A DNA stretch of 64,000 nucleotides from assembly GCA_051648645.1 (NCBI GenBank), contig JBOFFP010000004.1, positions 96,001 to 160,000 on the forward strand. The letters run 5' to 3'. The stretch comes from Candidatus Rhabdochlamydia sp. (GTDB lineage Bacteria > Chlamydiota > Chlamydiia > Chlamydiales > Rhabdochlamydiaceae). The notes below the pieces were generated by a model. The model searched no databases and was not told the origin of the DNA. It was given only the letters and a program-made list of their open reading frames with translations. Positions 26,769 to 28,833 of this stretch are shown piece by piece; position 1 is the stretch's first letter; every line of letters starts with the position of its first letter. The position numbers and the translations under genes were made by a program.

Positions 26769-27296
26769 TTAAACTATTTTACTGCTTTTTTTTGCAGCCC
26801 CCGGCGCTAATACAACTGATAAACTACGCCCGAGCATTTTCGCTGGCGCTTCAGGAGTGGCTACATCAACAAGACCTTCACACATTCCTAAAACTGCTTT
26901 TTGAGCATATTCAGGTCGTGCCATTTCTCTGCCACGCAATGTACAAGTAATACGAACTTTATTCCCTTTAGCAATAAAATCACGCGCATGTTTTAATTTT
27001 ACCATGATATCGTGATCGTCTGTATTAGGCTTAATTTTTATTTCCTTTACCTTAACCTGATGCTGCGACTTTTTTTGTTCTTTTTCTTTCTTTGTTAGTT
27101 GATAACGATATTTACCATAATCGATAATTTTACAAACAGGAGGAGCCGCATTTGGAGCGATTTCTACCAAATCCAGTCCCATTTGCTCTGCTTTTGCCAA
27201 AGCTTCTGCTAATGACAAAATCCCTAATTGATTTCCTTCTTTATCAATTACACGTACTTTTAAAGCACGAATTTCTCTATTGATTCTCAGATTCAG
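26769..27296 (-). CDS. infC: Translation initiation factor IF-3, probable CTG start
   Basis: RINREIRA, LDLVEIAP, PPVCKIIDYGKY; GGGGGT SD-like sequence 7 nt before the in-frame CTG at 27296. Confidence 0.95.
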   Translation of the reverse strand: MNLRINREIRALKVRVIDKEGNQLGILSLAEALAKAEQMGLDLVEIAPNAAPPVCKIIDYGKYRYQLTKKEKEQKKSQHQVKVKEIKIKPNTDDHDIMVKLKHARDFIAKGNKVRITCTLRGREMARPEYAQKAVLGMCEGLVDVATPEAPAKMLGRSLSVVLAPGAAKKSSKIV

Positions 27297-28833
27297 AGTT
27301 CTTACCCCCAGTTGCCATTTGTATCCGTGTGCACAAAGCATCTACTGTTATGCTCTGTTCTTGATTTAAGCCTGACTCATGCAAAGTAAGCATATTTGCT
27401 AACCGCTCTTTCTCGCCAATAAGCACAATATAAGAAATATGTGCTTTAATTGCCTTATAGAAACGCTGTGCTAAAGAAACGCTATATTGATAATCCATTA
27501 ATACTTTAACGCCTTTTTGGCTTAATTGAGCACAAACCGTCTCAGCATATAACCTGCTTTCGGAATTAACTACAATAATACGTATATTTTCGCTAGTTAA
27601 CCAAAAGGGCAGCTTACCCCCTGTTTGCTCAATAAGCACTCCCATCATTCTTTCTAAATTGCCAAACATAGAGCGTAAAAGAATTGCTTCTTGATTGCTC
27701 TTTAAAATGCTTAAAAAAGGCCCACTCCACCATCTTTTTAAGCTGTCTGCAATGTGTATTTCTACGCGTTCAATAAAATCAGAGTGACCTTTCTTTTCAA
27801 TACGATAATCTAACTGCAATTCCTTTAAGGCCTGTTGCATGATAGACAACTGCATATCATTTTTTTTTCTAACTTTACTATGAGAACTGCGTAAAATAAT
27901 TTCGAACTCAAAACCCAAGATTTTAGGGGTTTTTAAAATGAATTGCAAGGAAGAAATACACTCTTTTAATAAGTTCTCTCTTGAACAAAATAAGTGCGTA
28001 TAATCAGCCAAATAGCAAGAGGATTGAAAAAGCCCTTGTTGCATATCATTACTGTCTGGATTCATAACCCATGCAATCTCTGCCAGTTTATGCATTTTTT
28101 TTTGAGTATTTTCAAATACTTGCTTATGATTCTTCGTTAAAGGATTAAAACCATTTGTAACTAGCGGATGAGGAGAAGTGATAAATTCAATATTTTCTTT
28201 TGCAGATTCTTTTTTCCAATAGTTAATCAAAAGTTCTTTTATTGCTTCTGCTTTGGGCAACCAAATCCAACCTCCTTGATTTTCTAAAGGCATAAAAAGC
28301 TGCATGTCACAAATTAACTGGAGGTGATTGCGCTCTTGCCAGAATAAACGCTTCTGCTTGCAAGCACTATTTGCTATGCCAACAATTCGAACAAGACCTG
28401 GAATAAAAGAACAAACCATAAAAGCTTCTTTTAACTTCGCTGTAAATGAAGCTTTAACTTTATGAAGATTGAGATGAGGAACCCATGTAGCAAATTCCCC
28501 TATTTGTCCCATGGTGATTAAAGCGTTTTGGTTTTTTTTTAGCTTTTTAGCAATCAAATATTGTTTTTGATGCTCCATCCATAAAGCAGCATTATTAGGT
28601 GTCATTTCAAGAGATCTTAAAACCCTATCTTCTTTATAAATCATCCTCATTCTATCTTCTATAACGCCTAAAAGATTAGGCTCAAAATCAAAGGGAAAAA
28701 GGATATCATAAAAAAAGCAAGCCTCTGTTCCATGACCTTCTACTAAAAGCGCTTTTGGAAACAGTTCTACAACTGCTGCTGCCAAAAGTAAAGAATTTAC
28801 TTGATTTTCAATTATATAATTATTTTCAGACAT
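27277..28833 (-). CDS. Threonyl-tRNA synthetase-like protein with degenerate active sites
   Basis: ThrRS domain order is recognisable (LLAAAVVELFP, FFYD, GGWIWLPK, FGNLERMMGVLIEQ.GG.LPFWL, IGEKE) but key catalytic residues are missing; ATG at 28833 lies just downstream of tRNA-Val. Confidence 0.85.
   Translation of the reverse strand: MSENNYIIENQVNSLLLAAAVVELFPKALLVEGHGTEACFFYDILFPFDFEPNLLGVIEDRMRMIYKEDRVLRSLEMTPNNAALWMEHQKQYLIAKKLKKNQNALITMGQIGEFATWVPHLNLHKVKASFTAKLKEAFMVCSFIPGLVRIVGIANSACKQKRLFWQERNHLQLICDMQLFMPLENQGGWIWLPKAEAIKELLINYWKKESAKENIEFITSPHPLVTNGFNPLTKNHKQVFENTQKKMHKLAEIAWVMNPDSNDMQQGLFQSSCYLADYTHLFCSRENLLKECISSLQFILKTPKILGFEFEIILRSSHSKVRKKNDMQLSIMQQALKELQLDYRIEKKGHSDFIERVEIHIADSLKRWWSGPFLSILKSNQEAILLRSMFGNLERMMGVLIEQTGGKLPFWLTSENIRIIVVNSESRLYAETVCAQLSQKGVKVLMDYQYSVSLAQRFYKAIKAHISYIVLIGEKERLANMLTLHESGLNQEQSITVDALCTRIQMATGGKNSESENQ

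Follow-up and report, generated by a model that had tools for sequence, protein, structure and literature searches.

What keeps a threonyl-tRNA synthetase (ThrRS) paralogue that appears unable to work as an enzyme directly 5′ of infC in Candidatus Rhabdochlamydia sp.? The gene, which we call psi-thrS (P0001), lies at 27277..28833 on the minus strand of the window, that is, of the whole 64,000-nucleotide stretch analysed (contig JBOFFP010000004.1, positions 96,001 to 160,000), and its predicted product is a 518-aa, catalytically dead ThrRS paralogue without a TGS domain. Our answer, to which we give a probability of about 0.72, is that psi-ThrS is a pseudo-synthetase sitting in the ancestral thrS slot and kept both as a protein and as DNA or RNA. 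It would descend from the ThrRS of the slot tRNA-Val(GAC)–thrS–infC–rpmI–rplT–pheS, and its TGS domain, zinc site, motif 2 Arg and editing residues would have been lost before the sampled chlamydial families split. Two reasons for its retention are proposed. One would be protein-level selection on the N2 domain and the class II core (residues 1–410), and the other an infC promoter plus the infC Shine–Dalgarno (SD) sequence and start, which would act from within the open reading frame (ORF) at the level of DNA or RNA.

psi-thrS was found to be a single minus-strand ORF, uninterrupted over 518 codons between the ATG at 28833 and the TAG at 27279–27277, and the chance of an open frame as long as this was about 5e-19, as estimated from composition (34.6% guanine plus cytosine). 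A TTG at 28884 was considered as a start and ruled out, as it sits within a tRNA gene. A preliminary description of this DNA had announced such an ORF, with the domain order of ThrRS but no TGS domain, at the thrS position of the infC–rpmI–rplT–pheS operon; the frame proved to be open as described, the Pfam annotation of the neighbours confirmed the position, and alignment to the ThrRS of the same genome, an AlphaFold2 model and a Foldseek search all returned the domain order. Pfam itself recognised the anticodon-binding domain only (PF03129 HGTP_anticodon, E 1.6e-09, residues 418–505), as did the NCBIfam models of histidyl-tRNA synthetase (HisRS), whose matches span this domain only (E 7e-06). 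The score of psi-ThrS to the ThrRS equivalog model TIGR00418 was 146.2 bits, below the curated cut-off of 383.65, so that the family model does not place it among ThrRS, and BLASTP against the genome's own ThrRS gave 23% identity over 525 aa (E 1e-27). The AlphaFold2 model, built on an alignment of 25 family members, had a mean predicted local distance difference test score (pLDDT) of 83.9 and a predicted template modelling score (pTM) of 0.76. Its top Foldseek matches in the PDB were full-length bacterial ThrRS, namely E. coli 1qf6_A (E 5.9e-37), then 6vu9 and 1nyq_A. Architecture and fold are thus those of an N2 domain, a class II core and an anticodon-binding domain. The protein starts at the N2 (editing-domain-like) part (residues 1–165, 28339..28833, minus strand), followed by the class II catalytic-core-like part (residues 166–410, 27604..28338, minus strand) and the anticodon-binding domain (residues 411–505, 27319..27603, minus strand), the latter intact in the window and expendable in relatives. 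No TGS domain was seen in psi-ThrS nor in any relative examined.

The working gene was found elsewhere. Contig 12 carries a canonical thrS whose 643-aa product scored 679.4 bits to TIGR00418, above the cut-off, and displays the TGS domain, HSSAH, DLCRGPH, KPMNCPG, HRHE, QDDAH and HRALFGSVER. At the editing site of psi-ThrS, HxxxH reads QxxxL and both the Cys and the His of CxxxH are lost, so neither half of the ThrRS editing signature in N2 remains, nor the intact editing His and Cys of a free-standing editing protein of the ThrRS-ed or AlaX type; the DLCRGPH equivalent is devoid of Cys. In the core, HRHE of motif 2 reads MNPD, with Asn in place of Arg, and HRA reads LRS, with Leu in place of the zinc His. 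Some 30 residues are missing from the protein between motifs 1 and 2, and its shortened zinc-Cys loop holds no Cys. Motif 1, H280 (the His of QDDAH and third zinc ligand) and, in motif 3, E394 and R395 are retained. Of the ThrRS zinc triad, which we take to be C334/H385/H511 in E. coli numbering, H280 is thus the sole ligand kept, and of the two ATP-binding Arg the one in motif 2 is gone and R395 is kept. Set against ThrRS (TIGR00418; E. coli 1QF6, S. aureus 1NYQ), psi-ThrS shares the fold, the domain order from N2 on, the slot 5′ of infC, motif 1, the Glu-Arg of motif 3, the anticodon-binding domain and a class II-type predicted dimer interface; unlike ThrRS, it is without TGS, zinc Cys, one zinc His, motif 2 Arg and editing His/Cys, and it scores far under the cut-off.

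Most of the losses that had first been read by eye (QVNSLLL for the editing HxxxH, the changes in motif 2, LRS for HRA) hold in the alignment. So do the loss of Cys in ATWVPH, equated with DLCRGPH, and the joint loss of two of three zinc ligands and the motif 2 Arg, and the presumption that a working thrS lies elsewhere is answered by the contig 12 gene with all its catalytic, zinc and editing motifs. The pairing of KPMNCPGH with NPLTKNH fared less well. No Cys is present under either alignment, but the equivalence is alignment-dependent, since NPLTKNH falls under TSGHWEHY in the pairwise alignment to the genome's own ThrRS and under KPMNCPG in the L-INS-i alignment. Judging by these residues, psi-ThrS is a catalytically dead ThrRS fold and aminoacylation is done by the canonical thrS.

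The catalytic audit was carried out on an alignment of 27 paralogues (27 genomes), 24 canonical chlamydial ThrRS and 5 outgroups. All 24 canonical copies from related genomes retained every audited motif. In the paralogues, the zinc Cys, the motif 2 Arg and the first editing His were each kept in 1 of 27, the His of HRA in 2, the His of QDDAH in 14 and the motif 3 Arg in 21. At most two of the three zinc ligands were present in any one paralogue, and the motif 2 Arg was accompanied by any zinc ligand in G009 only. Out of 150 columns invariant in the canonical enzymes, 10 were retained in at least 80% of the paralogues. The longest, least diverged copies (568–591 aa; G030, G032, G035 and G087) were dead too, including that of G035, which scores 450 bits to TIGR00418. 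The G087 copy still has the zinc-loop segment, with Ala replacing Cys, which suggests that residues were lost first and loops deleted later. Since all the copies examined are dead by their motifs, the loss of catalysis is an ancient one, which would predate the divergence of the sampled chlamydial families. Incidentally, a diverged 442-aa copy (L086, in G023) keeps HxxxH and the editing Cys and is without zinc ligands and without the Arg of motifs 2 and 3; none of the other 26 shows this combination, which may reflect chance or a retained editing-type site.

A possibility was that psi-thrS had simply been left to decay, in which case the ratio of nonsynonymous to synonymous substitution rates (dN/dS) should lie near 1. 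All the values that follow are approximate: they are simple Nei–Gojobori pairwise estimates, and the genomes compared are related, hence not independent, and in many cases metagenome bins. In nine genomes of the genus (36 pairs), the median dN/dS was 0.17 for codons 1–415 of psi-thrS, as compared with 0.08 for the canonical thrS and 0.12 for infC. It was 0.17 in codons 1–165 and again 0.17 in codons 166–410, whereas codons 416–500 gave 0.37 with an unusually low dS of 0.15 (six intact genus genomes). In other clades of the Rhabdochlamydiaceae, pairs with dS <1.2 gave 0.11–0.24. Besides, in a codon alignment of 33 sequences, conserved residues were written in varied codons, six for R395, four for G152 and four for P26, and such scrambling of codons at conserved amino acids points to a constraint on the protein. 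Residues 1–410 of psi-thrS, that is, N2 and the core, are under purifying selection. The preliminary description had supposed a gene retained rather than drifting, and a pseudoenzyme at that: the first follows from the medians in the genus and in the other clades, and the second is supported by the second thrS, the dN/dS values and the varied codons taken together. Fold, lost catalytic residues, purifying selection and a working paralogue, the marks of a synthetase-derived pseudoenzyme, were thus all found.

Selection is not uniform along the gene. In the window all 518 codons are open, but the anticodon-binding domain is broken in three of the nine genus genomes, each with different lesions: an 8-bp deletion, a 1-bp insertion and stop codons in G007, a 1-bp insertion and a TAA in G001, and deletions of 68 and 21 bp in G004. 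All these disruptions fall within the last 100 codons, the first 420 codons of the three genomes being open, and pairs among the three show dN/dS of 0.18–0.19 for codons 1–415. Many genomes being metagenome bins, single-base frameshifts could be assembly errors; this is less likely for the 8-bp and 68-bp deletions and for the stop substitutions, and one broken copy lies in a two-contig genome whose record annotates a 429-aa product. Several genera (L018, L023, L024, L026) have no anticodon-binding domain at all, and in the records L065 and L066 psi-thrS is fragmented throughout. The module under selection is therefore N2 plus the core; the anticodon-binding domain can be done without, and some lineages can spare the gene altogether. 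We also noticed that 27319–27500 (codons ~445–505) has a dS of 0.10–0.25 in the genus Rhabdochlamydia, versus ~0.5–1.0 upstream, for which a leader element peculiar to the genus, or recombination, may be responsible. The idea of a leader RNA element as a general feature of these codons was dropped, the other clades mostly having dS of 0.8–1.2, with one pair at 0.33.

The second part of the answer lies in the DNA of the ORF. The most conserved protein block of the family, ECISSLQFILK(I/T)PKILGFEF at residues 291–310, is also frozen at its synonymous sites. Over the 33 sequences, ATT was found in 33/33, TCC in 31/31, TTG in 33/33, TTC in 33/33 and AAA in 32/32, and dS in the block was 0–0.15 in 11 of 12 pairs (0.32 in L055/L057), versus 0.17–1.85 in codons 1–285. 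Within this block (ECISSLQFILKTPKILGFEF), and overlapping codons 296–305, lies a sigma-70-like promoter candidate (27920..27948, minus strand) with a −35 box TTGCAA (27948–27943), a 17-nt spacer and a −10 box TAAAAT (27925–27920). The promoter scan calls TTGCAA-17-TAAAAT, the hexamers lying within the 16–18 nt spacing of sigma-70 promoters. The motif with exactly 17 nt of spacing recurred in 58 of 78 loci under a strict pattern, the 78 including some places fetched twice; of the 20 loci without it, 5 have no such gene and 3 more carry variants. In the −10 variants (TAAAGT, TAGAAT, TAAACT, TAAGAT, GATAAT, TACAAT) the amino acids change and TAnnnT is kept. From this pattern, the block is a nucleotide-level element, probably an internal promoter of infC–rpmI–rplT located ~620 nt 5′ of infC. 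According to PMC6511841, E. coli infC is transcribed from P0 and P0′, both within thrS, in addition to the thrS promoter; on that account the E. coli thrS–infC–rpmI–rplT operon and the present locus would have in common a promoter or promoter-like element inside a thrS or thrS-derived ORF 5′ of infC. Unlike in E. coli, the host gene here has lost its enzymatic function, and what stands before it is a tRNA gene in place of an operator leader.

The end of the ORF bears a further signal. The infC translation start region (27294..27309, minus strand) comprises the SD GGGGGT (27309–27304), 7 nt and a CTG (27296–27294) in the infC frame, and the psi-thrS stop TAG (27279–27277) lies 15 nt past this CTG. 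An SD followed by 7–9 nt and CTG or TTG recurs across loci, an in-frame stop standing directly before it in L017, L057 and L070, and codons 514 and 517 of psi-thrS are frozen (GAA 24/24, AAT 23/23). The ATG at 27341 was ruled out as the infC start, as it is deleted in L015 and in-frame stops occur downstream of the equivalent position in other genera. These signals indicate that infC probably starts at a non-AUG CTG within the last codons of psi-thrS, so that psi-thrS translation would end on the infC start region and be coupled to that of infC. A non-AUG infC start abutting or overlapping the upstream ORF is common to E. coli, where it is used in the autoregulation of IF3.

The gene order around psi-thrS is tRNA-Val(GAC)–psi-thrS–infC–rpmI–rplT–pheS–tRNA-Ser. 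The tRNA-Val(GAC) gene (28842..28917, minus strand; ARAGORN; Rfam tRNA 65.4 bits) is the genome's only gene with a GAC anticodon, and its 3′ end lies 8 nt before the psi-thrS ATG. Downstream, on the minus strand as well, we annotated infC (IF3; 26769..27296; Pfam IF3_N/IF3_C, TIGR00168 205 bits, probable CTG start) and, by Pfam, rpmI (L35; 26554..26751), rplT (L20; 26155..26511) and pheS (25070..26092). A candidate operon promoter, TTGATT-18-TATCAT (28938..28967, minus strand), came from a sigma-70 consensus scan and lies ~20 nt 5′ of tRNA-Val, the scan of the region yielding 7 matches versus 6.7 expected by chance. Spacers of 6–40 nt between tRNA-Val and psi-thrS in 12 loci leave no room for a promoter, from which we infer that the two are co-transcribed. 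Rfam (E ≤ 0.1, 20000–36000) returned only two tRNAs and no T-box, L20 leader or other known element, and no intrinsic terminator was predicted in 26700–29100, versus 1.6 expected. Divergently from the tRNA-Val operon, a putative rRNA methylase gene (29038–29619, PF06962) is followed by a 269-aa ORF (window 29884–30693, plus strand) with no Pfam match at E ≤ 0.01. The adjacency of tRNA-Val(GAC), the promoter-like element and infC start signals, the broken domain in relatives and the order-wide family described below were all absent from the preliminary description.

Contigs from RNA libraries of two studies cover the psi-thrS ORF without indels. Record 2 of X1 spans 27026–28794 with 73 differences and 0 gaps and comes from a ~4% diverged relative with its frame open; record 13 of X2 spans 27907–28976 and takes in the tRNA together with the ORF's first 60%; and the X5 pieces hardly differ from the window. 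They are consistent with transcription, carry-over of DNA being possible and contigs being blind to transcript ends, strand and level. For the same reason, the end of X2 cover at 28976 (none at 29029–29100) and the contig ends at 27907/27936, near the predicted start, were left unused, as contigs cannot show transcript ends.

To evaluate the distribution of psi-thrS, 40 relatives were sampled, comprising 24 genomes of the same family and 16 other families with one genome each. A ThrRS-like ORF between tRNA-Val(GAC) and infC was found in 22 of the 24 Rhabdochlamydiaceae, the exceptions being G012, from which the gene is deleted, and G014, where infC was not found. It was found in 13 of the 16 other families as well; G026 and G028 have no gene between tRNA-Val and infC (~50 and 240 nt apart), and in G036 the contig ends. 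The family profile confirmed the very diverged copies, namely those of G033, G037, G025 and G040 and the second ORF of G038 (E 7e-10 to 1.5e-27). In G038 (L074, 1302–2219), an extra 305-aa ORF stands between tRNA-Val and a 337-aa dead ThrRS copy. tRNA-Val(GAC) lies directly upstream in 11/11 family and order loci, in 32/34 named-record loci and in 18/19 further loci. The 34 named-record loci are all from chlamydia-type metagenome bins, some titled as other phyla: L040, L041, L043–L048, L052, L053, L061, L065 and L066 show a chlamydia-type locus under Verrucomicrobia/Verrucomicrobiae, Acidobacteria or Acidobacteriota titles. Bins so titled that hold tRNA-Val, a dead ThrRS and infC are probably mislabelled chlamydiae. 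A canonical thrS scoring above the cut-off was present in 71/71 genomes of a phylum-wide sample. Moreover, tRNA-Val(GAC) stays directly 5′ of infC even where psi-thrS is deleted (L069–L071), and because this adjacency persists in genomes without psi-thrS, the linkage of tRNA-Val and infC predates the intervening gene and is the more stable of the two.

The family is large, with 57 clusters at 90% identity in one search, and with the G087 copy as query at least 107 of the best 149 representatives at 50% identity lacked both the zinc-Cys and the motif 2 patterns. psi-ThrS orthologues are 72–85% identical, and family members 29–42%. In trees, the paralogues formed one clade (Shimodaira–Hasegawa-like approximate likelihood ratio, SH-aLRT, 100), and so did the canonical chlamydial enzymes; when 36 further functional ThrRS were included, starred branches separated the two chlamydial groups. 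The closest functional relatives of the paralogues were a mix of TGS-containing and TGS-less enzymes. The idea that today's canonical gene was duplicated recently thus finds no support in the trees, the long paralogue stem making any placement unsafe, and psi-thrS may have arisen by duplication or have been left behind when an acquired thrS displaced the original gene.

Several observations weigh against the reading of psi-ThrS as a pseudo-synthetase kept both as protein and as nucleic acid. The protein branches of psi-ThrS are 5–20 times longer than those of canonical thrS, and the dN/dS values are, as said, simple pairwise estimates on kin genomes, with many metagenome bins among them. Breaks or fragmentation of the ORF affect G001, G004, G007, G034, L065 and L066. 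G012, G026 and G028 have lost psi-thrS by deletion, which leaves tRNA-Val ~50–240 nt 5′ of infC. In the family f20 (23 genomes of 1.0–1.3 Mb), no second copy appeared among the matches listed, and one of its members, G049, has no tRNA-Val within 2.4 kb 5′ of infC. That the anticodon-binding domain has been lost repeatedly speaks against recognition of the anticodon type. The promoter is a reading of the sequence from which we infer activity, the RNA evidence consists of assembled contigs, uninformative on promoter starts, and RNA binding, to which we now turn, is a guess.

What the protein might do can be stated only tentatively. psi-ThrS could be a non-catalytic RNA-binding or regulatory protein in translation, targeting the acceptor arm of tRNA or its own tRNA–mRNA transcript, a proposal that we hold to be possible and rather less probable than not. 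It follows from the nature of the conserved module: in the 1QF6 complex, it is with N2 and the core that ThrRS grips the acceptor arm of tRNA. A more specific version, which we regard as improbable, is that N2 and the core of psi-ThrS bind the acceptor arm of tRNA-Val while it is still joined to the psi-thrS mRNA, and so control 3′ processing and the translation of psi-thrS and infC. E. coli ThrRS represses its own mRNA through an operator that mimics tRNA, and if the version just outlined were true, a real tRNA would serve as translational operator, as a counterpart of that tRNA-mimicking thrS operator.

The best surviving alternative, unlikely as we find it, is that psi-ThrS regulates or inhibits the working ThrRS, by forming a heterodimer with it or by titrating tRNA-Thr, and thereby tunes the supply of threonyl-tRNA. 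A two-copy model of residues 1–415 bears on this, with an interface score (ipSAE) of 0.70, the best of three controls being at 0.00. The pass mark was reached by 20 of 30 proteins solved as one-chain pairs, as against 1 of 23 whose structures are single chains. Model runs agreed in at least 93% of contacts, with partner pLDDT of at least 82, and the predicted interface falls on the motif 1 region (residues 178–199, 216–224, 234–247 and 271–275). Going by the model, psi-ThrS probably still forms a class II homodimer, although the score may reflect its likeness to the abundant solved dimers of class II synthetases. The retention of the motif 1 region and of a predicted class II interface would suit a partner of ThrRS, and a canonical ThrRS was present in every examined genome with a dead copy. 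However, a homodimer model cannot tell homodimers from heterodimers, and the two copies are only ~23% identical.

Next comes the idea that the protein has no function and that the ORF is open only for the cis needs of infC–rpmI–rplT, namely translation, promoter and 3′ end. The most conserved block is indeed nucleotide-level and promoter-like, the last codons hold the infC start, and in some lineages the anticodon-binding domain decays freely 3′ of the promoter. Yet dN/dS is 0.17 in both codons 1–165 and 166–410, far from the cis elements and with a dS of ~0.5, and codons vary at positions whose amino acid does not. Frames of 341–591 codons stay open in AT-rich genomes across families, and in lineages that have deleted the gene, expression of infC continues from the side of tRNA-Val. 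We consider this idea a poor candidate.

The odds are equally poor for a structural or assembly factor associated with the ribosome or IF3, by analogy with mL39. All through the order, psi-ThrS does belong to one operon with IF3, L35 and L20, but this adjacency is inherited from the ancestral thrS–infC order and is hence unspecific. Besides, mL39 keeps TGS and N2, and psi-ThrS, having no TGS, does not fit that type.

A still lower probability goes to an enzyme with a different chemistry, run by the remaining Asp/His and the motif 3 Arg. D277, H280, E394 and R395 are conserved in most copies of the Rhabdochlamydiaceae, but they are also framework residues of canonical ThrRS, and the motif 2 loop and most pocket residues are unconserved even among the paralogues. 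Least credible of all is a simple decaying pseudogene still open by chance in the window genome: frameshifts and stops in three of nine genus genomes, loss of the gene in some lineages and its fast evolution speak for it, but the confinement of the genus lesions to the last 100 codons, the low dN/dS between the broken genomes, the minute chance of such an open frame and retention since before the families split do not.

The pseudo-synthetase reading, in contrast, has precedents. HisZ and other synthetase-derived non-enzymes likewise have kept the fold, lost catalysis and remained under selection, the parent of psi-ThrS, which belongs to none of these families itself, being ThrRS and not HisRS as for HisZ. 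HisZ regulates HisG, mL39 resides in mitoribosomes and animals have second ThrRS-like genes; in bacteria, repurposed dead synthetase paralogues are rare, with HisZ as the textbook case. We found no published description of the psi-ThrS family in a literature search of listings and abstracts. Its public names are automatic only, and inconsistent: 'His/Gly/Thr/Pro-type tRNA ligase C-terminal domain-containing protein', 'hypothetical protein' and, for a 429-aa record from Ca. Rhabdochlamydia oedothoracis, 'Threonine--tRNA ligase 2'. psi-thrS should not be counted as a second ThrRS.

Collectively, these data describe one stretch of DNA under three constraints, a case of overlapping codes: the sequence encodes a protein, harbours a promoter-like element and contains the start region of the gene that follows. 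They also carry a warning, as what looks like a family's most conserved protein motif may in fact be a DNA signal. psi-ThrS is old and widespread, being found in most sampled families of environmental chlamydiae, and its persistence in small genomes, many of them <2 Mb, suggests that in these bacteria the ThrRS fold does something useful in translation other than aminoacylation.

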